A stretch of DNA of 40,000 nucleotides from Clostridia bacterium (GTDB lineage Bacteria; Bacillota; Clostridia; Christensenellales; UBA1242): positions 11,372 through 51,371 of the forward strand of contig JAZOTD010000036.1 in NCBI GenBank assembly GCA_045657465.1. The letters run 5' to 3'. The notes beneath the pieces were generated by a model that saw only the letters and a list, made by a program, of their open reading frames with translations, did not search any database and was not told where the DNA came from. Position 1 is the first letter of the stretch; the number at the start of each line of letters is the position of its first letter. Shown here one piece after another: positions 4,746-18,149 of this stretch. Position numbers and translations under genes: made by a program.

Positions 4746-4779
4746 AAAAAAAGAACTGCAATTTGCAGTTCTTTTTATT
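4746..4779 (-). terminator. Rho-independent terminator of the ppx-like gene (hairpin flanked by A- and T-runs)
   Basis: Stem AGAACTGCA (4752-4760) pairs with TGCAGTTCT (4764-4772). On the minus strand a T7 run follows. It abuts the stop at 4780. Confidence 0.6.
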
Positions 4780-6300
4780 TTATAAAATTTCAAGTTTCTT
4801 ATGGAATGTCTTTTCGAAATCTCTGCCAACATCCATACCCCTTTGAATTTCAAATGTTGCATCAGCAACAGTAACAGTTTTCATAATAACTGAATCACCC
4901 AAGATGTCACAGTTAATATCAACAATAACACTGTTTTTGGTTCTATCAAAACATTCAGCCAATCTCAAGATGACACCAAGTTTCTTTGTTGCATCAATGT
5001 CTTCAACTGTCAAAATACCATTATATTTTGCCCAGTCAGCCATTTTTATGTCACCACCTGAATGAAGCGATGCCACAAAACTTGCCAAAATCAATTCTCT
5101 GTGAGTCAACCCATAAATTTCACTGTTAAGAACAACTTCAAATGAGTGACTAGCGTGTTTGTTATAGCTAATTCTCTTACCTACATCGTGCATATAAGAT
5201 GCAACTCTGAGCACCTTTACATATCCACGTGGAAGTTTGTGAAGAACTCTAAGTTGTTTAAAGAGCAGCATTGACAAGTTGTAAACTTGTTCATTGTGTT
5301 TTGTTGAATTTGCTTCATATTCAGAAGTTTGAGCCATAACTGAGAAACCAACAATGTCTGAATTTGGTTTTTCAATAGTAGTTGGTGTAACTGAATTGAA
5401 AAGCAAACCTTCAACCAGTGATCTAGTTGTGATTGTGATTGTTTCTCTTTCAAATTCTTCTGAAATAGCTTTGATGATTTGCACTGCATATGCAAAGATA
5501 TCCGCTCTTGATTCATGCAAACCTTTAAGTCTCTTGTTTTCATTCAATTCAAGCGCTTTGAGTTGTTTTAAAATGTGATCGATATTTGCACTCTTCAAAA
5601 CATAACCATCATCTTTGTCAAGTGGATATTTTGTGTAAATTCTGTCCATACTTGAAAGATCTTCAAAATAAACACCATTGCCCACAAACACATATTCTTG
5701 GTCAATTGTTTTAAGCCAATCAAAGTCTGAAAGTTGTGATTTAACATACTTAACAACTTTTTCAAAGGCTTCCTCTTTTCCAAGTTTTGAAACAGGATAC
5801 ATGTCAACTAAAGTTTTTGGACCAACCGGAATAAACGCCTGGTTCAAAATATTTCTTCTGTTATAATGAATCAAGTGAATGTTATCAGTTCCAACATTTA
5901 CAATTAAACCTTTTGGAATATCATAACTATTCATTACACCAGTATAGATTGCAGCATTTTGTTCTTCAGGTGAAAGCACCGAAAATCTAAAGCCACAAGT
6001 CACAAACACTTCATCAAAGAAGCTGTAAATATTCATTGGTTTTGAATCTTTAATAAAACTTGCAATTGCGATGGTTTTTGTAACTTCAAACATATCACAA
6101 ATTTTTCTAAAATTCTTTAATGTGCTAATGATAGATGAGATTTGATTTTTCTTTAAGAAATGATCATCGTCCATTTCAAGACCAAACTTGATTGGCTCAA
6201 CCTCAACATCACAAATTGAAAAATAATTATCTTGAACAACATTCGCAATAACCAATTTTGCGGAATAAGTTTCAACAAGAACAACAGCAATTTTATCCAC
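4780..6300 (-). CDS. Ppx/GppA-family phosphatase with C-terminal HD domain
   Basis: 506 aa. The N-terminal half has a Ppx/GppA (ASKHA) layout. The C-terminal part has an HD signature (ASYMHDVGKRISYNKHASHS...SLHSGG). Confidence 0.75.
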   Translation of the reverse strand: MDKIAVVLVETYSAKLVIANVVQDNYFSICDVEVEPIKFGLEMDDDHFLKKNQISSIISTLKNFRKICDMFEVTKTIAIASFIKDSKPMNIYSFFDEVFVTCGFRFSVLSPEEQNAAIYTGVMNSYDIPKGLIVNVGTDNIHLIHYNRRNILNQAFIPVGPKTLVDMYPVSKLGKEEAFEKVVKYVKSQLSDFDWLKTIDQEYVFVGNGVYFEDLSSMDRIYTKYPLDKDDGYVLKSANIDHILKQLKALELNENKRLKGLHESRADIFAYAVQIIKAISEEFERETITITTRSLVEGLLFNSVTPTTIEKPNSDIVGFSVMAQTSEYEANSTKHNEQVYNLSMLLFKQLRVLHKLPRGYVKVLRVASYMHDVGKRISYNKHASHSFEVVLNSEIYGLTHRELILASFVASLHSGGDIKMADWAKYNGILTVEDIDATKKLGVILRLAECFDRTKNSVIVDINCDILGDSVIMKTVTVADATFEIQRGMDVGRDFEKTFHKKLEIL

Positions 6301-6433
6301 TATTATCTACTCTCCTAACTTATTTTACATACTACGATTATACCATAAAACAACTCGCTTGTATATGAATATAAAGATTATTTCTAATTATCGTTGGGGT
6401 ATATCAAAAAGTTATAGCACCCATACAAAATTT

Positions 6434-6467
6434 AAAATAGGTTGACATCAAATCAACCTATTTTTTT
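6434..6467 (-). terminator. Terminator of the rnf-like operon
   Basis: Stem TAGGTTGA (6438-6445) pairs with TCAACCTA (6453-6460). It is flanked by A- and T-runs and lies immediately after the rnfB stop (6466-6468). Confidence 0.6.
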
Positions 6468-7248
6468 ATAGTCTTGAAATTACGTGAGTTGGACAAGCCG
6501 CAACACACTTTCCACACTTAATACATTTTTCTGCATCAATCTTTGGCATGCCACCAACCATAGTAATTGCACCTGATGGACAAGCCACAACACACGCTTC
6601 ACAATGTGTGCAAGCAACTTCGCAATTTCTTGTTACAACTGAATCATTTGATGAATTGCTGCAAACAACTTCAACAAATTTCTTTGCAGGAATCATTGAA
6701 ATTAGCTCATTTGGACAAGCCCCAACACATTCTCCACAACCAACGCATCTTTCTTTGTCAACAACTGCACAGCCCTTTTTAGATATGCTTATTGCCCCAT
6801 AAACACAGGCTTTAGCACAATCTCCACAACCAAGACATGCAAATTGACAATGTTTATCACCAGAATGTTCCAAGTTTTTGCTGGCACAGGTTTGATCACC
6901 AACATAATGATATTTAGTTCCGCAATCACAACCACCTTTACATCTAACAAATGCAACACTGTTAAATCTAACCTTGCGTTCTTTCTTTAGAACTTGTCTA
7001 GCTCTCAAATAGTTTTTTCCAACGAAATATGGACACATGCTCATAATTGTTTTGCCTTTTGTTAAATCATCAGCAAACTTTGCACAATTAGGTCTTCCAC
7101 ATTTTCCACAATCTAAATTAGGCAACAATTCACGAACAACTTCTGCCGTTTTGTCTAATTTTTTGTTCTTATTCGTAACAACAACCATAATCACTATTGC
7201 AAGCAACAAGAAAACAATTGAGCCTGAATAAACAATAATTTTTAACAT
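6466..7248 (-). CDS. rnfB: RnfB-like polyferredoxin subunit
   Basis: N-terminal TM helix, then the RnfB-type Fe-S domain LPNLDCGKCGRPNCAKFADDL...CP, then several CxxCxxCxxxCP 4Fe-4S motifs (CVGCGECVGACP, CTHCEACVVACP, CIKCGKCVAACP). SD AAGGAG lies 5 nt upstream. Confidence 0.85.
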   Translation of the reverse strand: MLKIIVYSGSIVFLLLAIVIMVVVTNKNKKLDKTAEVVRELLPNLDCGKCGRPNCAKFADDLTKGKTIMSMCPYFVGKNYLRARQVLKKERKVRFNSVAFVRCKGGCDCGTKYHYVGDQTCASKNLEHSGDKHCQFACLGCGDCAKACVYGAISISKKGCAVVDKERCVGCGECVGACPNELISMIPAKKFVEVVCSNSSNDSVVTRNCEVACTHCEACVVACPSGAITMVGGMPKIDAEKCIKCGKCVAACPTHVISRL

Positions 7249-7257
7249 AGCAACTCC

Positions 7258-7833
7258 TTAAAACATTAATCCTGCGTAATGTAATAAAATTGAAAATATA
7301 GCAAGCAAAAACAATCTAGATGGAACATTTCTAAACGCTGAGTTTATATATGATCTGTTCACTGATTCAGTAAAGAATCCAACAAGCACACTCACAACCA
7401 AAACAGAAACAACAATGGCAATAATTGACATTGCAAATTCTGCAATTGGCATGCTCATATCGATTGTAAAAATCACTGAAAACGTAAATGACGCATCCAT
7501 AACATATGAAAATGAACTTTCATATAAATAATGTTTGAATGTTGAGATTTTTGACCAAATATGATTAACCAAAAGATTATATGTGCCAACAAACACAACC
7601 GCAACGCTCGCACTTATATATTCTAAATTAAATGGTTTGTAAACATATGTGTTCAACACATATGTTGCAAAACAACATAGAATGATTCCCACAACTAAAA
7701 AGACTGATTCCAAAAGCCTAAATGACTTATACATTTTTTCTCTTTGGAACAAAACAGCACCGGTTCCGTTAGAAACAACAATATTGCTTTTCAAACCATA
7801 TAAAACCAAATACGATAATAAAATTTGCAACAT
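7258..7833 (-). CDS. rnfA: RnfA-like integral membrane subunit (Rnf-Nqr family), divergent
   Basis: 191 aa with about 6 TM segments. Its position between the rnfE-like gene and rnfB matches canonical gene order. The C-terminal NVPSRLFLLAIFSILLHYAGLMF resembles the RnfA/NqrE C-terminus. Its start overlaps the rnfE stop as TAATG. Confidence 0.55.
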   Translation of the reverse strand: MLQILLSYLVLYGLKSNIVVSNGTGAVLFQREKMYKSFRLLESVFLVVGIILCCFATYVLNTYVYKPFNLEYISASVAVVFVGTYNLLVNHIWSKISTFKHYLYESSFSYVMDASFTFSVIFTIDMSMPIAEFAMSIIAIVVSVLVVSVLVGFFTESVNRSYINSAFRNVPSRLFLLAIFSILLHYAGLMF

Positions 7834-8774
7834 TATTCATTATCCTCCTTTGGTTTTTTATTGAATACTTTTTCTACCTTTGCACCTTTAGCATTCTTTT
7901 TCTTCTTACCTTTCTTTGTCGCAGGTTCTTCAGGTTCAACTTCTTTAACTTCTTCTGCAGGTTTTTCGCTAGCAGTCATTTCTTCTGGCGGCTTGTCAGT
8001 GATTTCATTCATATCAACCACTTCGTTAGCACTTTCCTTTTCGTTGATTTCTTCAACTTTTTCACCATCAATCTTATTTGTTTCAATTTGATTTGCAAGA
8101 AGTCTTTGACGTCTTAAATTGTCATATTGGAAAACTTTTTCATTTCTAATCTTTTTCAATATCTTTTGATATTCAATTTGTTTTTTCGTAACTTTATTGG
8201 CAATAGCCTTATGAATAACCTCAGCAAGGAATGCAATAATACCCATCCATAACAAGTTAAACACTTGAGTTCTGCAGAATGCATGACCAGTAAATCCAAA
8301 CAATTGTCTTTCAAAAACTGTTCCATAAGCTAAAAATTCTTTAAACACACTATACACAAAGCCCATTAACGCAAACACAAACATAGCTCTCAAAACTTTA
8401 TACAAATAGTTTTTAGCAACCGCTTTTGTGTTGATATAAATGATATCAATACTCAAGATTGTTGTAGCAATAACTGACAAAAATCCTTCTTCGTGAACAT
8501 GCACATGAAGTCCAAAAAGTTCATATTTTTCAATAACAAAATCTAAAAGCGTCACAATAAACACTGACAATATTGCAGTCACAAACACTTTAACCGAACG
8601 ACTAAAGAATTTGTTAAACACCAAGCACACCAGTGCAGATATTAAATAACAAATACATGTAGCAATAATGAAATATATCGCATAGTTTGAATGAGCCATA
8701 ACAAACATTAGTGGACATAACGCCAAAATTGCGATATGCACAAAGCTCATTTCAATATTAGTTTTTAAATGCAT
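7833..8774 (-). CDS. rnfE: RnfE-like integral membrane subunit with a long charged C-terminal tail
   Basis: The N-terminus AILALCPLMFV matches the RnfE/NqrD G(L/I)CP motif, and about 6 TM segments follow. I place the start at the ATG at 8774 (track M4), because SD GGAGGTG (8781-8787) lies 6 nt upstream. Track residues 196-316 form a K/E-rich low-complexity tail. Confidence 0.6.
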   Translation of the reverse strand: MHLKTNIEMSFVHIAILALCPLMFVMAHSNYAIYFIIATCICYLISALVCLVFNKFFSRSVKVFVTAILSVFIVTLLDFVIEKYELFGLHVHVHEEGFLSVIATTILSIDIIYINTKAVAKNYLYKVLRAMFVFALMGFVYSVFKEFLAYGTVFERQLFGFTGHAFCRTQVFNLLWMGIIAFLAEVIHKAIANKVTKKQIEYQKILKKIRNEKVFQYDNLRRQRLLANQIETNKIDGEKVEEINEKESANEVVDMNEITDKPPEEMTASEKPAEEVKEVEPEEPATKKGKKKKNAKGAKVEKVFNKKPKEDNE

Positions 8775-9687
8775 TTCTAACACCTCCTAACGCCAAAGGC
8801 TTAAGAACTAAATATTTGTCCATTATAGGAACAAGCATATTCATAAACAAAGCAACTGCAAAGATTGAATTTTCTCCAAGCTTTCCAGTGCTCCAAACAA
8901 GTGCAGAAAGCACACCAAATAAAAGTGAATATAAAATCTTGCCAATAAACGTGTTTGGTGATGTGTTAGGATCAGTAATCATAAACACTGACACGAAAAT
9001 AAACGAACCTGAAAACATATTCATGACAGTTTCTTCAAGTCCACCAAGCATCATCCCAGTAACAAAATAACCAATCACTGCAAGTAGTGGAAGTTTAAAA
9101 TCAACCACACCTGAATAAACCAAGAATGCATAACAAATAACCAAGATAATCACACAAGTGGTTCCAATTCCACCAACACTCTCACCCACAAGCAAGTTTG
9201 TAAGTGTGTTAGTTCCACCAAGTGCAATCGATGTCATTTGTTCGCCATTAAGTGTGATTTGATAAAACTCAGAAGCAACCATGCTTGAAATAACACCAGT
9301 CATACATCTTCCCACAAGTGCAGGATTAAACTTGTTTCTTCCAAGCCCACCGAATGCCATCTTTGCAACAAATATTGAAACAAAAGCACTAATCATAACA
9401 AAATGCCAAGGAATTCCAATAGGCATCGTAAGTGCCAGAATAAAACCTGTTACAACACAAGAAAAATTATCAACATAAAATTTCTTTTTTGCGATAAGGT
9501 TAAACAATCCTTCAAAAACCAAGCAAGAAACAACCCCAACAGCAACAATTAACAATGCTTTAATTCCAAAAAATAACGTTCCATAAATTGCAGGCAACAA
9601 CAACGCCACTGCCACATACAAAAACATCTTATTTGTATCATTACCACTACGAACAAATGGAGCGTGTGAAACTACAAACTTTTCCAT
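8758..9687 (-). CDS. rnfD: RnfD-like subunit (NqrB/RnfD family)
   Basis: Motifs read: VSHAPF (compare SSPH), FGGLGRNKFNPALVGR, MITDPNTSP, FAVALFMNMLVPIMD. SD GGAGGTG lies 7 nt upstream. The start overlaps the rnfC stop as TAATG. Confidence 0.8.
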   Translation of the reverse strand: MEKFVVSHAPFVRSGNDTNKMFLYVAVALLLPAIYGTLFFGIKALLIVAVGVVSCLVFEGLFNLIAKKKFYVDNFSCVVTGFILALTMPIGIPWHFVMISAFVSIFVAKMAFGGLGRNKFNPALVGRCMTGVISSMVASEFYQITLNGEQMTSIALGGTNTLTNLLVGESVGGIGTTCVIILVICYAFLVYSGVVDFKLPLLAVIGYFVTGMMLGGLEETVMNMFSGSFIFVSVFMITDPNTSPNTFIGKILYSLLFGVLSALVWSTGKLGENSIFAVALFMNMLVPIMDKYLVLKPLALGGVRNAFKN

Positions 9688-11000
9688 TACTTAACACCTC
9701 CATGTTTTTTATCATAAAATTTTGCTGCAGCAATTCTTTGTGTCAAATAACGTCTTGAAGGACACACATATGAACAGCAACCGCATTCGATACAAGTTTG
9801 AACATTAAGTTTTTTAATCTCGTCAACATTTTCTCTTAAATAAGCTTCATCAATAAGCTTTGGATTTAAAAATACCGGACAAACATTTATGCACTTTCCA
9901 CAAGAAATACATGGAAGTTCTTTTTCTGGAGTAAGCACATCATATTTTAAAAGCAACAATGTGTTTGTCATCAAAGAAACTGAAATGTCTTTGTTGTATT
10001 GTGCTGTGCCTGATAAAACATTTCCATCAACAACTTGACAGTCAGCTTGCGAATCTTCAACACCTGCATATTCAATCAGTTTGTCATAAGATGTGCCGAT
10101 AGGAACAATATAGTTACCCTTTCTAACAATATTGTCACCATCAACAGTAACAATCTTGCTTGTAACTGGCTTGTTAAATTCAACGGCACGACAAAAATCG
10201 AAACAAGACTCAGCTGTTTCAATGGTGATTCCCGCCTCTAAGAAAGATGTGGTTTTATTTATATTCTTTTTACAAATAAGTTTTGCAACAATGTAAGGAT
10301 TGTCAAATGGATACTTGTTTGGAATAAACTTAATTTTGAAGTCATAATTCTTTTTTGTTTCAAGAATATGCTTTTTTACTTTTGCAGCAAGCTTGTAGTT
10401 TGCTTCCGTGAAAACAAATGTGATGTATGACGCACCAGTAATATTCATAAAATACTTGGCACCATTAACAACTTCTTCAAGTCTATAGTTGACCAAAGTT
10501 TGATTGATTGAATTGTTTGGATCAGTGCTGTCCATCATAATAACTAATGTCTTATAGGTTCTTGCACCCACATAAGCATACTTTAGGTATGTTGGCATAG
10601 TTGAAATTGTGTCAACCAAACCAGCTTCACGAAGTCTGGTAATAAGTGCGGTGTCTCCAATTGAATCAATTTCTGGCAAGTCTTCAACTTCTTCTTTCGA
10701 ATCATTCATAATCAAAACATGCTTGCAAAGCTCACCATGTGAATTCATTTTTTGCAAGATGTTTAAAACCTTTCCACTGCATGGTGAAAAGATGTTCACA
10801 CCGAACTTTCCTGATGGTTTTGCAATCAATGAACCCTGCTTTACAACATCACCAACGTGAACAACAGGCTCAGCTTCTGCTATGTTTTTTAACTTTAGTG
10901 GCACGTTATAAAATTCAGCTGCTGGCATTTGAGACAAATCAACACCAACGCTCATTTTCTTCATGTATGGATATATACCCTTAAAACTAATTAATCCCAC
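9687..11000 (-). CDS. rnfC: RnfC-like subunit (divergent; retains two C-terminal 4Fe-4S motifs)
   Basis: The N-terminus FKGIYPY corresponds to RnfC FKGG(V/I)HP. A barrel-sandwich-like region follows (VHVGDVVKQGSLIA...SPCSGKV). The C-terminus has CISCGKCINVCP and CIECGCCSYVCP. The track starts at GTG 11012. I prefer GTG 11000 because GAGG lies 6 nt upstream. Confidence 0.7.
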   Translation of the reverse strand: MGLISFKGIYPYMKKMSVGVDLSQMPAAEFYNVPLKLKNIAEAEPVVHVGDVVKQGSLIAKPSGKFGVNIFSPCSGKVLNILQKMNSHGELCKHVLIMNDSKEEVEDLPEIDSIGDTALITRLREAGLVDTISTMPTYLKYAYVGARTYKTLVIMMDSTDPNNSINQTLVNYRLEEVVNGAKYFMNITGASYITFVFTEANYKLAAKVKKHILETKKNYDFKIKFIPNKYPFDNPYIVAKLICKKNINKTTSFLEAGITIETAESCFDFCRAVEFNKPVTSKIVTVDGDNIVRKGNYIVPIGTSYDKLIEYAGVEDSQADCQVVDGNVLSGTAQYNKDISVSLMTNTLLLLKYDVLTPEKELPCISCGKCINVCPVFLNPKLIDEAYLRENVDEIKKLNVQTCIECGCCSYVCPSRRYLTQRIAAAKFYDKKHGGVK

Positions 11001-11029
11001 AATAAACCTCACTTAATATATACAAAAAT

Positions 11030-11058
11030 ATTGTAACAAATTATGGGTTTATTGTAAA
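11030..11058 (-). promoter_or_regulatory. Candidate sigma-A promoter of the rnf-like operon
   Basis: Minus strand reads TTTACA (plus 11053-11058), a 17-nt spacer, then TGtTACAAT (plus 11030-11038), which is an extended -10. Confidence 0.45.
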
Positions 11059-11081: not shown

Positions 11082-11462
11082 TTATTGTTTTTTATTTTTC
11101 ATTGCAAGAATGGTTTTTATAGCATAAAAAATACCAACCAAAATAATGAAACTTGCAAACAAAATTCTAAGCAAATTTGAACTAGTTTTAAGCGCAAAAA
11201 GACTCGCAAAAAAAGCCACTATCGTGGCAGGAATTGAAATGCAAAAAAACGCCATGAAATCAATCAATTTATTTTTAATATAAATCACAAAACAAACACT
11301 CGCCAAAACAACAAAACAGATCACATTTGTTGACTGGCAAATAATCTGCTCAACTCCAAAAAACAAACTTAAAAGCGGAATCAAAAAAGTTCCACCACCC
11401 ATACCCATTCCAGCAAAAATTCCCGAAAATGTAGATATTAATAAAATTAGCAAAATCTGCAC
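11082..11462 (-). CDS. Half-size TSUP (TauE/SafE-like) membrane protein, second of a pair
   Basis: 126 aa with 4 TM segments and the motif GMGMGGGTFLIPLL. GTG start with AAGGAG 6 nt upstream. Confidence 0.7.
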   Translation of the reverse strand: MQILLILLISTFSGIFAGMGMGGGTFLIPLLSLFFGVEQIICQSTNVICFVVLASVCFVIYIKNKLIDFMAFFCISIPATIVAFFASLFALKTSSNLLRILFASFIILVGIFYAIKTILAMKNKKQ

Positions 11463-11483: not shown

Positions 11484-11529
11484 TTTTTATATTGTTTTTC
11501 AATGTTTTTTAATGCTTTTTGCGTTTTTT
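11484..11529 (-). other. Array of five helically phased A-tracts (T-tracts on the plus strand)
   Basis: T5-T6 runs at 11484-88, 11495-99, 11505-10, 11516-20 and 11524-29. Start spacings are 11, 10, 11 and 8 bp. The array fills the 65-nt gap between the two TSUP half genes. Confidence 0.6.
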
Positions 11530-11908
11530 AAAACACAATCATGCAAACGCCAGCCACAATTAACACCACTGAAAAGATTAAATCTATAACATTATTTTTT
11601 AATTTTTTCAATAATTTTGTTCCAACCAAGCTTCCAATTACACTCCCTATCCCACACACCAAAACAAGCTTAAAATCAACTTCATTTTTAATAAAATAAA
11701 ACACTGAACTTGACACACACATAAACAGCACACAAGCAAGTGTTGTGGCATGTGCAATCTTAGAATCTTGTTTTGAAACATAGCCAATCATGGGCACAAG
11801 CAAAAGCCCACCACCCGCTCCAAAAAAACCATTAATGAACCCAGCAACCAGTCCAACCGCCACTAGCTCCAAAATTTTTAATAATTCTTTCTTGTTTTTA
11901 TTATCCAC
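11528..11908 (-). CDS. Half-size TSUP (TauE/SafE-like) membrane protein, first of a pair
   Basis: 126 aa with 4 TM segments and the motif GFFGAGGGLLLVPMI. Confidence 0.7.
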   Translation of the reverse strand: MDNKNKKELLKILELVAVGLVAGFINGFFGAGGGLLLVPMIGYVSKQDSKIAHATTLACVLFMCVSSSVFYFIKNEVDFKLVLVCGIGSVIGSLVGTKLLKKLKNNVIDLIFSVVLIVAGVCMIVF

Positions 11909-12095: not shown

Positions 12096-15000
12096 ATGAA
12101 GAAATTATCAAAATCATACAGCAAGAACAAAAAGTCAATACTAAGCGCATTCCTTGCATCAGTGTTGGCATTTTCATTTAACTACTCTCCAATTTCAATG
12201 ATTAGCAATCTTGTTAAGACTTCAAATGCTTACAAGTCTTCATCATTGCAATCTTATTATGGCGAAACAACTTCAACTTCTGAATCAAAAGTGAAAGCGT
12301 ATTACCCTGAAGAACTCGCAGAGTATTTTTCTCAAAGCAAAACAAATTTCAACATCGAAACTTATTACAATTCAAGATTCGATGACTTGTTCAAAGGTTA
12401 TGCAAATGACTTTTTGCTAAGCGGAAAAGTGCCTTTTGTTAATCCTGACGGTTCAGACAACCCTGATGCAATGACAAACTATTCAACTCTTGTTAGAAAC
12501 TTCTTGTCAAACAAAAAAGTTTCAACTCTTTATGAATACTTTGAAAACAACAAAACTGACATCAAGGCAGACCTAAACATTTCAGACTTTAGAACATATG
12601 TTGAATATTTCGTATCTCACGAAATCACTTGGACAATCTCTGATGCTGAAACAGGAAAAATCCCAGCAGCATTCACAACCGCCCCAACAAAAACTTATTT
12701 CTACTGTTCATTTGCAAACTTCTTAACCAACACACAAGAAAGTGTTAAATCAACAGATACAAATGGTTTTGACAACCTTCCAGAAGATTACACAGAATCA
12801 CAATTCTATCAATTCTCTCTTTCTTATAAAAGACTCAAAGATGCTGTTGATGCTGAAATCGTTAAAACAATGGCAATCTATTCATATGATGGTCAAACAC
12901 AAAGCAACACCGTTGCAGGCATCGTGGCTGAAGGTGCTCCTGTTTCAAAAGAGTTCTATTATAAAGATAATGAATACACTCCACAAAACACACCAAAAGT
13001 TTCTTATTCACAAAAAACCGTTAACAAAGTAAAAAATAGAATTGTATATTACTTTGGAACTCTTCCAACATTGCCAAGCGGATACACTAGACCAGATCAT
13101 CTTGAAGAATTAGACATAAACAAATTTTATGAAAACCCTCTTCAATATAGATTAACCCTTGACGACGGCTTAGACGACAATGAAGAATATGGTTACATTC
13201 CTGGGATCAACACATTCTATAAATATGAATCAATTCCATTTGCAACCACAAAAAATCAATATGACTTATATGTCGTTGATGACTCTGTTACAGATTTAGA
13301 AAAAACAACTTATGCATCACTTGGCATCACAGTGTTAACTTCTGACGACATCGACAACGACACACAAAACGCTGAAGACCTTCAAGACCTTGGGATTAGC
13401 AAAGCTGATTCAAAATCTTACTTCAAGGTTCCTTATGATTCAACTGCTGAACATGGTGACATCTATTTCAACCAAATCTTCAGTTTCATTGCTTCATCTG
13501 CAACTAAAAACAAAGTTTACAAAATTTTAGAAGAATTGCAAAAAATTGATGCAATACATGGTCTTTATTTAAAATATAAAAACAATGCTGATAATATCGT
13601 TTATTATGACCCTGCTTTAAATGGTGGCAAATCAAAAGAAACTTTCATTGCTGACGCAAAGAAAGAAGAAAACGGCATCTATGACCATTTGGTTATTGAA
13701 TTTGATTACAATAGTTTGTCTGCTGAAGAAAAAGAAAGCTATTGCATCATTCCAACTTCATTCTCTGGTCACAACGTTGGTAGTTACACTCTCTATTTTG
13801 AAAAGACAAAAACTTTCTATCAAGAAACTAACACAACAAACTATGATGGTTACGTAACAAAAGACACACCTGTTGACCCATATGAATATTCATCTCACCT
13901 GATTCCAACAGATTCTTACAAAATGGCTGACTATGGCAAAGAAATTTTTGCTCTAGTTGAAAATAAAGACACAACTGCCAAAGTTACAATTGACTCAACT
14001 GAATATTTTACCGTTGATCAATTTGAACTTGATAAACCTGAAAATAGAAATTTCTATATTGAAGTTCCTGAATACACCTACAACAAAATTTATGGTGCAA
14101 ACAACAGAACCTACAAACTCTATTTCAAACATGAAGCAAAAGCAACAAGACAACTCTATGTTGTTGATGACACTAAATCTGCTTCAACAAACGAGGTTTA
14201 CAAAAATTTATATTACAACGTTATCACTTCTGAAGAATTGAAGCTTAACAAACTCAATTATGTTGCCGTTGAATCAACTGATGCAAACTACAACAAAAAC
14301 TTTAAGCTTTATTATAGATATGATGAAGACACAAAATTTTCTGAACTCTTTGTTCAAAATGAATTTAGAAACACCGGCAGTGACGATAATTCAAAACACA
14401 ACGCCAACGCTGTTTACATTGTCGATGAAGATGTTAAGCCTGATGAACTTGCAAAATATAAAGTAAATTTGTTTAATGTTGTTTCAACAGAAGAATTCAA
14501 CCAAAACAAACACTTCTATGTTTTAATTCAACAAGGTGACGAAAACTATAACTCACAATACACAAAGCTTTATTACAAATATAAAACAGACACAACAAAA
14601 GCTAGTGAAAAAGTTATCTATATCTACACTTCTGGAAAGAGCGACAAATATCAAACTTTCTACAAAAACAACGCTGGTTATGTTGCTTCTGATTATGAGC
14701 TCATTCCATCAACAGACACTGAAAACTATGTTGAAGGTACAAACCTTTATTATAAAAAGAAAAGAGTTCAATCAGCAGTTAATAAGCCACAAATGACTTA
14801 TTATTATTATCAAAACTCTTCAACCGTTTCACTCAAGGCAAACAAATATTATGCTATTTCATTCTATGTTTACACAAACGGTTATTATGATGAAGCAAAG
14901 ACAATGCCTATTGAAGCATCATTCTATTTGTCAGATTCAAATGGCTACGTGTCAAACATTTCCCTTGAACACATCTCATCTCAAGGCAAATGGACAAAAT

Positions 15001-18000
15001 ATTATATGTTCGTTTCAACAGATCTCAACTCTGCTTCTGCTGTTTCACTTAAGATGTATCTTGGTGACAAAACAAGCATCTTGGGTTCTAGATATGAAGA
15101 CAACAAAGACACAATCAAAACTGTTAGTGGCGTTGTTCTCTTTGATAACATTAGAGTTACAACAATTAACTACACAGACTTCACAAAACGCAGAGTTGAT
15201 GACAAAGACATCACCGTTGAAAAATATTTAGAAGAATCTGATTCTCCTGTTGTTCTTGACGTTGTTGTTGCAAACGATGATGCAAGATTCAACACAACAA
15301 ACGTGTTTGACAACAGAGCCAACTCAACTCTTGTTATTGGAGACAATGACAATTCAACAACTTGGGACGAAGGCAAAGATTTTGATGACATGTTCAACTT
15401 TGACGATATCTATAACACAAACAAAGATTCAAACGTGTTCACAGATATTCCTGATGTAACCGAAAAAACTGATGGCTACTCACCAAAAACTACAATGTGG
15501 TCATATTATATTGGCCGTGATGTTTCTGGTCTTGGCAACAGCAGAAAACTTGAACAATATCAAGAAGCCTATATGTCAGGCAACCTTTCAGTAAGTCTCG
15601 TTGATGAAGAAACAGAAATCAGCAAAACAATCACTCCTGTTGACAAAGACGAAGATAAGAAAGAAGAAGATAAAAAAGAAGAAGACAAAACTGAAAACAA
15701 AGAAACAATTGCTTCAACATTTAATCTAGCAAACCGTGCATTGAAACTTGAAAACACAAACAGTATTATTTCTCTTGGCATCACATCAAACGCATTTAAG
15801 ATTGAACAATTTAGATATTACAAAATTACAGTTTGGGTGTTTGCTCCAGACAAAGAAGCAACTGCTTCAATCACACTTAACTCTGTGGTTGAAACCGCAT
15901 CAACTCCAACTTATGGAACTCTTTTAACAAAGACAATTTCTCTTGATGCATGCTATGCTTCATACACAACAGCTCCAACAAACGAATATGGTTGGATTCC
16001 TTGTTCATTCTATATTGAAGGAAATGCACTTCATGACCAACTTTGCTATTTGGTTCTTTCAGCTGGAAAAGACTCAACTGTTTACTTCGACAATATCTCT
16101 GTTGAAAATGTTTCATCATCTGCTTATGACACAGTAAGTTCAGATTCAGACAACACAACAAATTACTTGTCACTCACCAACTCATCATCAGTTATTTCTA
16201 ATGGTATCACAAATGGTTACTTTAACAACATCACTTTCAAAAATGATTACAAAGAACCAGACATGACAACACCTAGAACTGCAAAGAGCTGGACTGTTGA
16301 CTCAAATAGTTCAAGTGCTGTGGTTGCAGGAGTTGTTCCAACAAACAAAACCTACACTTCGCTCACTGACAACTTCTATAAAAAATATAACAAAGATGGC
16401 GACGACGTAATCATTCCATATTCAAATGGATTTGATGAAAACAATTCATACAACAACGTGTTTGCAATTTATGCCCCTTCAACAATGAACAACCCTATTG
16501 AAGGCTCAACACAAACTGGCGTAAACACAACTAATATGTATAAGCTTTATTCTTCTTCAATTAGCTTGTCTGCAAACGGCGTTTATGAAATTTCATTTGA
16601 TTTCTTCAAAGGATATAACTTCACTGGATCAATGATTGCAAACCTTTATTATGGTTCAAAAGATTCAGCAAAAATTATTTCATCATTTAAAATTGATGCA
16701 AACAACCTTGATGAATATGCTTGGGAAACCTTCAAATTCTATGTTGCTTCGTCATACTCAACCGCAAGTGTATATCTTGAAATTGGTGTAACTGGTGCAA
16801 CTGGAACATGTTTCTTTAAAGATGCTCTCAAGGTAACATCTTCAAAATTACTCACCGATTTGCGTGACGAAATTATCAATGTAAATGAAAACTTGTCAGG
16901 CACAGCTGATATGTTTAACAAACAATCTCTTCAAAACTATAGATTTGTAGACTTTGCAATGTTATCATCATCAACTCACAGCCTTGAATTCAATAAACAA
17001 AACAACACATACAACGTTTCTGAATACAAGAACGAACTCATTAACACCAACAAATACACCGTTGGAAAATCTGGAGTTGCTGTTGCAACATTCTTCGCTG
17101 AGGAAGATTCAACAGTTACATATTCAGTAACAATCAACAAAATAACATATTATATTGGTGAAGATGCAAGTTCTGACACAGGCTATTCACTCTACAAATA
17201 TTCTTGCTGCTGTGAAGATGACAAAGTAACTGAAATCGACGGCTCACCTGTTGTAGTTGAAAACACCAAAAAAGTTGTTGTTGGAAAAGATGACAAAACA
17301 ACTGATTATGCATCAACCAAAACAGAAAAGAAAAACTATCTCTACACTTTTGAAAAAGATGTTGAAATCAATAATGTAATGATTCCAGCTACTGAACTTA
17401 CAAACAACTATTCAGATAGTGTCATGATTTTAGCTAACAGCTATTCAACAGATTTCATTTCACTCACACCTGCTTACACAACAACATTAAGCAAGACATC
17501 ATTCTATGTGTTGAAAATATATGTAAAAACAAGTGACTTTGCAGATGAAGACACTGGATTGAACATCAATATTGCTTCAATCTCAACTTCTTGGAAAAAC
17601 ATCAACACAACAATTCTTGATGAAGGAAAGGCTGATGAAAATGGATTCGTTTGCTATCAAGTAGGTATTAAAACAGCTGACAGTTCAATAGCAAGTTTTG
17701 GTGTAACCCTTTCTCTTGGTTCTGAAAAATCAACATGCAAAGGCTATGCAATCATTGCAGACATCGAACTTGAAAAATATGCAACTGAAGCAGACCTTGA
17801 ACACTACATCTCAACAGTTGAAGACGATGAAATCACCGTTAAAAAATATTACTCAAATGCAAAAGATGGTTCTTCTTCAAACACTTCAAATGAAAAGAAA
17901 GAAGACGCTGAAGAAGTTTCAAGATGGGCAACCTTCTTCTATATCTTCTCTTCACTTCTTTTAGCTTTGGTTCTTGGCATGGCACTTGTTGCTGTATTTG

Positions 18001-18149
18001 TTAAAAAACACCCTGTTAAACACAGAGTAAAAGCAACAAACGACCACGAAAAAGATATTGAACTTCTTAGACCTAAGAAATCAGACATCTTTGAACCAAC
18101 AAGCAAATCTTCAAATGAAGAAGATTCTGGAAACGATGGCATTTTGTAA
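12096..18149 (+). CDS. Giant (2017 aa) secreted, C-terminally membrane-anchored surface protein with CBM-like modules
   Basis: Uninterrupted 6 kb ORF. The N-terminal signal-like segment is KKSILSAFLASVLAFSF...SNA. Tyr/Asn/Thr-rich repeats and four beta-sandwich-like modules follow. The C-terminal TM helix WATFFYIFSSLLLALVLGMALVAVFV is followed by a basic/acidic tail. No LPXTG motif. Confidence 0.85.
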   Translation: MKKLSKSYSKNKKSILSAFLASVLAFSFNYSPISMISNLVKTSNAYKSSSLQSYYGETTSTSESKVKAYYPEELAEYFSQSKTNFNIETYYNSRFDDLFKGYANDFLLSGKVPFVNPDGSDNPDAMTNYSTLVRNFLSNKKVSTLYEYFENNKTDIKADLNISDFRTYVEYFVSHEITWTISDAETGKIPAAFTTAPTKTYFYCSFANFLTNTQESVKSTDTNGFDNLPEDYTESQFYQFSLSYKRLKDAVDAEIVKTMAIYSYDGQTQSNTVAGIVAEGAPVSKEFYYKDNEYTPQNTPKVSYSQKTVNKVKNRIVYYFGTLPTLPSGYTRPDHLEELDINKFYENPLQYRLTLDDGLDDNEEYGYIPGINTFYKYESIPFATTKNQYDLYVVDDSVTDLEKTTYASLGITVLTSDDIDNDTQNAEDLQDLGISKADSKSYFKVPYDSTAEHGDIYFNQIFSFIASSATKNKVYKILEELQKIDAIHGLYLKYKNNADNIVYYDPALNGGKSKETFIADAKKEENGIYDHLVIEFDYNSLSAEEKESYCIIPTSFSGHNVGSYTLYFEKTKTFYQETNTTNYDGYVTKDTPVDPYEYSSHLIPTDSYKMADYGKEIFALVENKDTTAKVTIDSTEYFTVDQFELDKPENRNFYIEVPEYTYNKIYGANNRTYKLYFKHEAKATRQLYVVDDTKSASTNEVYKNLYYNVITSEELKLNKLNYVAVESTDANYNKNFKLYYRYDEDTKFSELFVQNEFRNTGSDDNSKHNANAVYIVDEDVKPDELAKYKVNLFNVVSTEEFNQNKHFYVLIQQGDENYNSQYTKLYYKYKTDTTKASEKVIYIYTSGKSDKYQTFYKNNAGYVASDYELIPSTDTENYVEGTNLYYKKKRVQSAVNKPQMTYYYYQNSSTVSLKANKYYAISFYVYTNGYYDEAKTMPIEASFYLSDSNGYVSNISLEHISSQGKWTKYYMFVSTDLNSASAVSLKMYLGDKTSILGSRYEDNKDTIKTVSGVVLFDNIRVTTINYTDFTKRRVDDKDITVEKYLEESDSPVVLDVVVANDDARFNTTNVFDNRANSTLVIGDNDNSTTWDEGKDFDDMFNFDDIYNTNKDSNVFTDIPDVTEKTDGYSPKTTMWSYYIGRDVSGLGNSRKLEQYQEAYMSGNLSVSLVDEETEISKTITPVDKDEDKKEEDKKEEDKTENKETIASTFNLANRALKLENTNSIISLGITSNAFKIEQFRYYKITVWVFAPDKEATASITLNSVVETASTPTYGTLLTKTISLDACYASYTTAPTNEYGWIPCSFYIEGNALHDQLCYLVLSAGKDSTVYFDNISVENVSSSAYDTVSSDSDNTTNYLSLTNSSSVISNGITNGYFNNITFKNDYKEPDMTTPRTAKSWTVDSNSSSAVVAGVVPTNKTYTSLTDNFYKKYNKDGDDVIIPYSNGFDENNSYNNVFAIYAPSTMNNPIEGSTQTGVNTTNMYKLYSSSISLSANGVYEISFDFFKGYNFTGSMIANLYYGSKDSAKIISSFKIDANNLDEYAWETFKFYVASSYSTASVYLEIGVTGATGTCFFKDALKVTSSKLLTDLRDEIINVNENLSGTADMFNKQSLQNYRFVDFAMLSSSTHSLEFNKQNNTYNVSEYKNELINTNKYTVGKSGVAVATFFAEEDSTVTYSVTINKITYYIGEDASSDTGYSLYKYSCCCEDDKVTEIDGSPVVVENTKKVVVGKDDKTTDYASTKTEKKNYLYTFEKDVEINNVMIPATELTNNYSDSVMILANSYSTDFISLTPAYTTTLSKTSFYVLKIYVKTSDFADEDTGLNINIASISTSWKNINTTILDEGKADENGFVCYQVGIKTADSSIASFGVTLSLGSEKSTCKGYAIIADIELEKYATEADLEHYISTVEDDEITVKKYYSNAKDGSSSNTSNEKKEDAEEVSRWATFFYIFSSLLLALVLGMALVAVFVKKHPVKHRVKATNDHEKDIELLRPKKSDIFEPTSKSSNEEDSGNDGIL
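13257..14762 (+). repeat. At least six degenerate tandem protein repeats (about 50-85 aa each) inside the giant CDS
   Basis: Units start near aa 388, 497, 615, 685, 770 and 838. Each ends in (Y/N)(K/T)LY(Y/F)(K/R/E). The best pair is aa 687-745 against aa 773-833: LYVVDD..Y..L.YNVITSEEL..NK..YV....D.NYN...KLYYRY versus VYIVDE..Y..L.FNVVSTEEF..NK..YV....D.NYN...KLYYKY. Confidence 0.7.
14808..15167 (+). other. CBM4_9-like beta-sandwich module 1 (aa 905-1024)
   Basis: Pattern read: SLKANKYYAISFYVYT ... ASFYLSD ... WTKYYMFVST..ASAVSLKMYLG ... VLFDNIRV. Confidence 0.5.
15642..15704 (+). repeat. Low-complexity D/E/K linker (DKDEDKKEEDKKEEDKTENKE)
   Basis: Read directly; purine-rich GAA/GAT/AAA codon run. 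Confidence 0.8.
15759..16112 (+). other. CBM4_9-like module 2 (aa 1222-1339)
   Basis: Pattern read: FKIEQFRYYKITVWVFA ... ASITLNS ... WIPCSFYIEG ... CYLVLSAGKDSTVYFDNISV. Confidence 0.5.
16188..16838 (+). other. CBM4_9-like module 3 (aa 1365-1581)
   Basis: Begins SNGITNGYFNN...AKSWTV, comparable to the NGgFE...W module start. Continues ISLSANGVYEISFDFF ... WETFKFYVAS..ASVYLEIGV.GATGTCFFKDALKV. Confidence 0.5.
17430..17774 (+). other. CBM4_9-like module 4 (aa 1779-1893)
   Basis: Pattern read: TTTLSKTSFYVLKIYVKT ... GLNINIAS ... FVCYQVGIKT..IASFGVTLSLG...GYAIIADIEL. Confidence 0.45.

Follow-up and report, generated by a model that had tools for sequence, protein, structure and literature searches.

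Current models of the Rnf complex hold that the redox state of an iron-sulfur cluster shared by the membrane subunits RnfA and RnfE (the A/E cluster) drives the ion-pumping stroke, and the clostridial genes are ordered rnfCDGEAB, such that rnfG is expected between rnfD and rnfE. Here we describe five rnf-like genes in a window of 40 kb (by which we mean the whole stretch of DNA analysed, from contig JAZOTD010000036.1 of a Clostridia bacterium) that appear to encode an Rnf derivative lacking RnfG, and in which alignment to solved structures leaves the RnfA/RnfE pair with a single one of its four cluster ligands. In the canonical complex, electrons pass from RnfB to the A/E cluster, the flavin mononucleotide (FMN) of RnfG, the FMN and then the riboflavin of RnfD, and the clusters and FMN of RnfC before reaching NAD+ (PMC12174285, PMC11889175). 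The four A/E cysteines are described as invariant in Rnf and Nqr (PMC9588780) and as strictly conserved (PMC11889175); in Acetobacterium woodii their mutation abolishes activity and autotrophic growth, and RnfG-T185A and riboflavin-ligand mutants are inactive (PMC11889175). The A/E cysteines and RnfG are regarded as indispensable; a lineage that has neither the cluster nor RnfG nor the usual RnfC motifs, and in which RnfA and RnfE nonetheless stay under strong purifying selection, is a natural experiment that splits the structural or ion-handling role of RnfA/RnfE from their redox role.

Among the described relatives, Na+-NQR supplies a precedent for the loss of cofactors: NqrA, the homologue of RnfC, is devoid of cofactors (PMC9588780), having lost them yet stayed in the complex (PMC9588780, PMC11889175). 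Na+-NQR still has the four NqrD/NqrE cysteines and NqrC, together with its two covalent FMNs, and NqrF is an addition. Reduction has gone the other way in two-subunit Nqr/Rnf-like complexes, which consist of an RnfD-like protein fused to an NAD-binding domain and an RnfG-like subunit, and which keep the flavinylated G subunit and drop A, E, B and C (PMC11334425). No published account of an Rnf of this kind, RnfG-less or partial, turned up in text searches.

Set against the canonical complexes of known structure (7ZC6 of Clostridium tetanomorphum, 9ERI of A. woodii and 8AHX of Azotobacter vinelandii), the window has homologous C, D, E, A and B genes in the clostridial order, and it keeps the RnfB cysteines, the two C-terminal [4Fe-4S] motifs of RnfC and the RnfD riboflavin ligands; it differs in the missing RnfG, in the one remaining A/E ligand, in an unrecognisable flavinylation motif in RnfD, in the replacement of three RnfC motifs and in an extension of RnfE. 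As in Na+-NQR, the RnfC/NqrA position seems to be without a flavin site, here with the ferredoxin domain still in place, and the fold of the RnfE-like protein matches NqrD; unlike Na+-NQR, the locus has no NqrF-like gene, retains an RnfB-type polyferredoxin and has apparently lost the intramembrane centre. With the two-subunit complexes it shares an RnfD-like protein that lacks a recognisable flavinylation site.

Results

Gene order and the missing rnfG

The open reading frames (ORFs) of the window include five genes packed on the (-) strand as rnfC'-D'-E'-A'-B', the prime denoting the versions found here (Table 1). A single base is common to the C/D pair and to the E/A pair, and rnfB' begins 10 nt past rnfA'; rnfD' and rnfE' overlap, leaving no room for an rnfG gene between them. 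Pfam and NCBIfam recognise RnfC, RnfD and RnfB, whereas RnfE is marginal and RnfA has no match. No FMN_bind or ApbE domain was found in the window ORFs scanned, including that of a 2017-residue neighbour, and the flavinylation motif D-x-x-[ST]-[GAS]-A-[ST] occurs in no window ORF of at least 80 residues. Nor is rnfG in the operon at any of at least 11 loci (L001-L007, L014, L017, L019 and L020) when 6-10 kb on either side is considered. The RnfG-less layout is found in seven species-level genomes (L001-L007) and again in L014, L017, L019 and L020. The organism is represented by metagenome-assembled genomes labelled 'Clostridia bacterium', which come from animal and human gut samples.

Cluster ligands of RnfE' and RnfA'

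The original prediction, made from the letters of the window, was that the RnfA/RnfE pair retains only one of the four cysteines expected to hold the cluster, and it quoted ALCPLM and IATTILSI from RnfE' and SNGTGAVLF and VMDASF from RnfA' as the relevant segments. All four strings are present, the cysteine inventories given for both proteins are exact, and alignments to solved structures bear out the count: C23 of RnfE' is kept, and the remaining ligand positions are occupied by T107 in RnfE' and by V27 and A114 or S115 in RnfA'.

RnfE', whose residues are numbered throughout from the GTG at 8783, contains cysteines at positions 23, 43, 45, 53 and 170. The column of the first ligand is Cys in 22 of 22 homologues. 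At the second ligand, where VVNCIIL of C. tetanomorphum RnfE pairs with VIATTIL, none of the 22 has a cysteine (Thr in 17, Ala in two, Ser in two and Val in one). Two deep relatives with the same RnfG-less operon retain different remnants: in L014 (RnfE' at 6328-6999) the first cysteine is gone (ALASVSL) and the second is kept (IVPCLLMG), whereas in L017 (5346-5996) the first is kept (ALCPL) and the second position is Met. Such a mosaic is consistent with drift of the ligand positions once the cluster had gone and constraint on them had relaxed.

The only cysteines of RnfA' are, as had been claimed, the adjacent pair C53-C54, and the pair is not conserved. Among 31 aligned homologues the first ligand position is Leu in 23, Val in four, Ala in two, Thr in one and Met in one. 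The second falls on A114 or S115, there being a one-residue ambiguity of register; the segment has no cysteine anywhere, and in either register the column is Cys in 0 of 31. The substitutions are not a sequencing accident, as every aligned homologue has them (31 for RnfA', 22 for RnfE').

Membership in the Rnf-Nqr family

The original prediction had allowed that the two ORFs might not belong to the Rnf-Nqr family; the matches place both in it, RnfE' directly and RnfA' through a broadened profile. RnfE' is a diverged RnfE/NqrD homologue. It scores 25.2 bits against Pfam PF02508 (Rnf-Nqr; cut-off 23.8), the match covering profile positions 4-168 of 174, and falls far under the NCBIfam rnfE cut-off (19.3 vs. 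213.4); a profile of its clade finds 7zc6_E at 1.4e-8 and 7xk3_D at 2.5e-4. An AlphaFold2 (AF2) model, with a predicted local distance difference test score (pLDDT) of 71 overall and 80-90 in the transmembrane (TM) region, retrieved NqrD or RnfE chains as its top 11 Foldseek matches in the PDB (probability 1.0, TMt 0.56-0.67, root-mean-square deviation 3.5-5.3 Å).

RnfE' also carries a conserved cytoplasmic C-terminal extension of about 110 residues (residues ~196-316, window 7833-8200 on the (-) strand) that is not in canonical RnfE, and whose sequence runs YQKxxKKIRNEKVFQYDNLRRxxLL...IETNKIDGEKVEEI... In the AF2 model TM6 is extended into a single long helix (residues 173-236), beyond which come a disordered acidic stretch and a poly-Lys tail. 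The extension is shorter in L014 and L017.

RnfA' is harder to place. The window protein has no Pfam or NCBIfam match, and none of its 31 homologues has a Pfam match; neither phmmer with the protein nor a search with its A1 profile found anything in the PDB, and hhalign against single E. coli RsxA or RsxE is weak, with a probability of 0.8% for RsxA. Since an exhaustive search with the A1 profile found only 28 proteins among 1.84 billion representatives, the RnfA' family is narrow. The transitive link to known RnfA runs through P0093-P0108 from this search. The 28 include full-length distant relatives at 19-25% identity (P0093, P0095, P0098, P0101 and P0106), all of them Cys-less and without a significant Pfam match, and from the same type of operon. 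Broadened with these, the profile (A4) matches RnfA chains only, and end to end (9eri_A 3e-7, 7zc6_A 3.4e-5, 8ahx_A 1.9e-3). P0107 acts as a bridge, being found by the A1 profile (1.2e-4 in 1.84e9 proteins) and scoring 56 bits with Pfam Rnf-Nqr, and N17, G25 and K33 of RnfA' align with conserved residues of RsxA. The AF2 monomer is of low confidence (pLDDT 67.6), and its best Foldseek matches are RnfA chains with non-significant E-values of about 1-2 and a TM-score of 0.35. Judged by its profile relationships, RnfA' is a genuine, strongly diverged RnfA/NqrE homologue that lies outside the curated family model.

RnfC', RnfD' and RnfB'

RnfC' just reaches its family model (TIGR01945, 246.0 vs. 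a cut-off of 245.95), and it matches 7zc6_C at 4.2e-51. Its NuoF-like domain has replacements for three motifs (Table 1) that five RnfC proteins with bound cofactors have in common; by analogy with NuoF/Nqo1, the three motifs presumably form the FMN/NAD(H) site. Among the 120 closest homologue clusters, G-x-G-G-[AG]-x-F-P and Y-P-x-G-[AGS]-E each occur in 0 of 120, and the two CxxCxxCxxxCP motifs of the [4Fe-4S] clusters occur in all 120. The replacements are themselves conserved (DSTDPN in 94 of 120 and YPFDNP in 85), which suggests a new constrained surface rather than decay, and the RnfC' proteins of L014 and L017 have intermediate versions of the replaced motifs. In canonical RnfC the NuoF-like subdomains hold FMN (PMC9588780). 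Homologues of RnfC' are labelled '4Fe-4S dicluster domain-containing protein' by NCBI, and JGI calls one of them RnfC.

RnfD' is the best-conserved membrane subunit (Pfam NQR2_RnfD_RnfE, 226 bits; 7zc6_D, 1e-38). The equivalents of the A. woodii riboflavin ligands N123 (FNPAL) and D249 (ITDP) are kept in all members of the clade. Of the positions that correspond to the flavinylation motif (D-x-x-[S/T]-G-A-[S/T]; PMC12052999), clade members conserve just the last, a Ser. RnfB' is a membrane-anchored polyferredoxin, with a Pfam FeS domain and several Fer4 domains; of its 28 cysteines, 25 lie in columns that are invariant over 11 clade members, deep ones included, and they would be enough for the six clusters described in C. 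tetanomorphum RnfB.

Conservation and selection

Clustering at 90% identity gives 57 clusters of RnfA' homologues, with lengths of 187-194 residues in nearly every case, and 24 of RnfE' homologues; reading frames are intact and lengths constant. When the window is compared with a 97%-identical relative, the ratio of nonsynonymous to synonymous substitution rates (dN/dS) comes to 0.046 for rnfA' and 0.040 for rnfE'; against a relative of about 80% identity, at which dS is near saturation, it is 0.11 and 0.17. With values of 0.07-0.21 for rnfB', rnfC' and rnfD', purifying selection acts on each of the five genes. Within the operon, RnfA' and RnfE' evolve fastest (38-65% identity vs. 61-75% for RnfB' and RnfC'). 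Relatives with as little as 19-24% identity in RnfA' share the gene order TauE-TauE-RnfC'-D'-E'-A'-B'-Ppx. Because dN/dS is low, synteny is deep and the layout recurs, the operon is best viewed as remodelled and functional, not as decaying.

A different arrangement occurs at L009 (325-4834; also L010 and L011), from fermenter and other metagenomes, where RnfC-D-G-E-A are followed, at the place of RnfB, by a 146-residue FMN_bind lipoprotein (ITGAT). Its RnfA, which is P0107, has Tyr and Ser at the two ligand positions and so lacks both ligand cysteines, as does RnfA' of the window. Unlike the window, this operon has RnfG, an RnfE with both cysteines and canonical motifs in RnfC, RnfD and RnfG. 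Loss of the RnfA cysteines has therefore occurred in more than one operon context.

Table 1. Coordinates of the rnf' genes, of sites within their products and of adjacent features (window positions)
Feature	Position	Strand	Remark
rnfC'	9687-11012	(-)	441 aa from GTG 11012
rnfD'	8758-9687	(-)	309 aa
rnfE'	7833-8774	(-)	313 aa from ATG 8774; in the ORF list 7833-8783, GTG, 316 aa
rnfA'	7258-7833	(-)	191 aa
rnfB'	6466-7248	(-)	260 aa
RnfE' Cys23 (LAxCP motif)	8715-8717	(-)	Aligned on Cys26 of 7zc6_E; sole retained ligand of four
RnfE' Thr107, second ligand position	8463-8465	(-)	Aligned on Cys109 of C. tetanomorphum RnfE
RnfA' Val27, first ligand position (Cys25/26 of RnfA/RsxA)	7753-7755	(-)	Alignment with E. 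coli RsxA and with RnfA of A. woodii (9eri_A) and C. tetanomorphum
RnfA' Asp113-Ala114-Ser115, in place of T-N-C (second ligand Cys113)	7489-7497	(-)	Alignment
RnfA' Cys53-Cys54 pair	7672-7677	(-)	C53 is Cys in 21/31, C54 in 1/31; not a conserved site
RnfC' DTISTMPT, in place of Gly-rich loop G(M/L)GGA(T/A/G)FPT	10590-10613	(-)	Alignment with solved RnfC
RnfC' DSTDPN(N), in place of ECEPY(I/L)T	10515-10532	(-)	Alignment with solved RnfC
RnfC' YPFDNP, in place of YP(Q/S)G(A/S/G)(E/A)	10296-10313	(-)	Alignment with solved RnfC
RnfD' N-G-E-Q-M-T-S, at the place of the flavinylation motif	9229-9249	(-)	Pairs with DGISQAT of E. coli and DGVTTAT of C. tetanomorphum in the alignment
Promoter-like site TTTACA-17-TACAAT with TG	11030-11058	(-)	Upstream of rnfC'; consensus match only
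Terminator-like hairpin	6434-6464	(-)	Directly after the rnfB' stop
Pair of half-size membrane genes of the TauE/SafE family	11528-11908 and 11082-11462	(-)	Pfam TauE

Discussion

Taken by their sequences, the two ORFs encode RnfE and RnfA subunits of an Rnf derivative of five genes, remodelled and without rnfG, that has become fixed in one clade of gut Clostridia of low GC content. The original prediction further proposed a probable loss of the electron relay across the membrane, which the wider operon supports: besides the missing ligands, rnfG is absent from the operon, the RnfD' flavinylation motif is unrecognisable and the motifs of the RnfC' FMN domain are gone. The absence of rnfG, the changes in RnfC' and the strong purifying selection on rnfA' and rnfE' go beyond what had been noted before. 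On balance, we favour the view that the relay has been lost and the complex repurposed. With the sites that remain, it would be unable to serve as a canonical ferredoxin:NAD+ ion pump, and the route by which cofactors were lost would parallel the transition from Rnf to NQR, in which NqrA gave up all of its own. There is also a practical consequence: scoring 'Rnf present' in metabolic reconstructions of such gut Clostridia would wrongly credit them with energy conservation by ferredoxin:NAD+ oxidoreduction.

If this view is correct, the complex would still be assembled and functional, operating without the canonical U-shaped path from ferredoxin to NAD+ and without a Na+/H+ stroke driven by the redox state of a cluster. 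RnfA' and RnfE' would most likely constitute a redox-inert membrane module, acting as a scaffold or docking site for the anchor and FdI domain of RnfB', and conduction of ions or alternating access may still be among their functions. The remaining wire (from ferredoxin to the RnfB' clusters, and from the RnfC' clusters to the RnfD' riboflavin) would then serve a donor/acceptor pair other than ferredoxin and NAD+. A possible trace of an ion path is found in RnfE', where an invariant K65 aligns with R67 of A. woodii RnfE and a near-invariant D113 adjoins the position of E115; R67 and E115 are the ion pair at the cytoplasmic Na+ entry of A. woodii RnfE (PMC11889175), and we regard the K65/D113 correspondence as a lead.

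More tentatively, the locus might represent a third, undescribed branch of the Rnf/Nqr family, one with five subunits that has no RnfG, no intramembrane [2Fe-2S] centre, no NAD(H) site and probably no covalent flavin at all, and that retains at least eight cytoplasmic [4Fe-4S] clusters. Such a branch could have taken on a new ferredoxin-coupled or ferredoxin-gated job in transport or as an electron sink, possibly linked to the TauE/SafE genes, in which the A/E pair would undergo alternating access with no redox centre.

One version of the repurposed complex calls for separate consideration, namely a cytoplasmic shortcut that pumps nothing, in which electrons would pass from the RnfB' clusters to the RnfC' clusters and the RnfD' riboflavin, and on to a membrane or soluble acceptor (e.g., a quinone-like compound), the A'/E' pair being purely structural. 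The retained sites, which are limited to the riboflavin ligands and the Fe-S sites on the cytoplasmic side, speak for such a route, and there is a precedent in NQR, where the riboflavin of NqrB/RnfD passes electrons to a membrane acceptor (PMC12174285). However, the nearest clusters of RnfB and RnfC are more than 30 Å apart in canonical Rnf, which allows no direct shortcut (PMC11889175), and closing this distance would need a structural change; we consider this version unlikely.

Several observations weigh against a lost relay. RnfB' keeps the FdI cluster, whose cysteines are invariant and whose sole known role is to reduce the A/E cluster. The Ser kept at the flavinylation position of RnfD' is a residue that ApbE can use (PMC12052999). 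In RnfE', C23 is invariant in the sub-clade and, over the same 22 homologues, C45 is Cys in 19 and C53 in 21 (C43 in seven, C170 in six), and both RnfA' and RnfE' have an Asp113 that is conserved and close to where the cluster used to be, that of RnfA' being invariant in 31 of 31 sub-clade members but not in the deep relatives. In addition, these genomes may encode an rnfG, an apbE or another, canonical rnf operon outside the loci scanned, and the assignment of FMN/NAD(H) contacts to the three RnfC' motifs draws on analogy with NuoF and on their conservation in cofactor-bearing RnfC.

Combined, these observations would allow for a relay that persists in altered form, with a non-canonical metal centre built from C23 and C45 or C53 of RnfE', C53 of RnfA' and the two Asp113 residues, and with RnfG and ApbE supplied in trans. 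Standard helix geometry would keep C45 and C53 from serving together, however: they are eight residues apart on TM2, and eight residues correspond to a rise of about 12 Å, so the two could not share one [2Fe-2S] cluster. Nor are the candidate ligands conserved in the deep relatives, since L014 lacks C23, L017 has no cysteine at 45 or 53, and neither of the two has any TM2 cysteine at these positions. The original prediction had named four cysteines at the A/E interface as what would overturn it, and the column counts over the 31 RnfA' and 22 RnfE' homologues contain no conserved four-cysteine set. The lack of rnfG across the scanned loci counts against an altered relay as well, and its canonical end point would be gone anyway, RnfC' being without the NuoF-like FMN-domain motifs. 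We therefore regard a metal site specific to the sub-clade as unlikely, and the persistence of the whole relay in this form as distinctly improbable.

The possibility that rnfA' and rnfE', or the entire operon, are functionless relics in decay might seem attractive in that these two proteins evolve fastest and score at or below family thresholds, but we give it almost no weight: intact frames, constant lengths, dN/dS of 0.04-0.17 and an identical gene order at such low identity all contradict it, as do the new invariant residues and the conserved RnfE' extension, and a pseudogene reading is rejected by dN/dS and deep synteny. Equally remote is the idea that the two ORFs encode unrelated six-helix membrane proteins inside an rnf operon, which the poor database showing of RnfA' would favour and which is contradicted by the full-length A4 matches to RnfA chains, by the bridge that P0107 makes between the A1 profile and Pfam, by the shared RsxA residues and by the fold and profile matches of RnfE'.

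Gene starts, flanking genes and signals

Two of the listed ORF starts, at 10998-11012 (RnfC') and 8772-8783 (RnfE') on the (-) strand, are probably too long. Since GGAGG lies 8 nt upstream of it and all homologues begin MH(I/L)K, the ATG at 8774 is the likely true start of RnfE'; for RnfC', most homologues have 437 residues, which makes the second GTG, at 11000, the likely start and gives a protein of that length. Promoter-like sites around rnfC' are not more numerous than in shuffled sequence.

The TauE pair directly upstream of rnfC' is also found in L001, L002, L004, L005, L007, L014 (2987-3767), L017 (2250-2998) and L019, i.e., in most relatives whose DNA reaches that far. In one lineage (three contigs) the gene-called protein P0115 is a 591-residue read-through ORF that joins TauE2, the intergenic region and RnfC'. 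A functional tie between the TauE pair and the rnf operon, like their co-transcription, is only putative, since the promoter-like site sits between TauE2 and rnfC'.

Perfect hairpins of 12-13 bp, flanked by A/T runs and terminator-like on both strands, occur at 4748-4776 and 6434-6464 and mark the ends of a Ppx/GppA-family gene and of the rnf operon. This Ppx/GppA gene (4780-6300, (-) strand), downstream of rnfB', has its own promoter-like site at 6365-6337 and adjoins the operon even in L017; over the same relatives its identity is 81-95%, far above that of the rnf genes.

Divergent from the TauE/rnf cluster, at 12096-18149 on the (+) strand, is the gene for the 2017-residue protein, which has a signal-like segment at its N terminus and a TM anchor at its C terminus, and in which no Pfam domain is recognised. 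Very large opposite-strand ORFs lie at the equivalent place in L019 (1997 residues), L014 (1159, cut) and L017 (713, cut).

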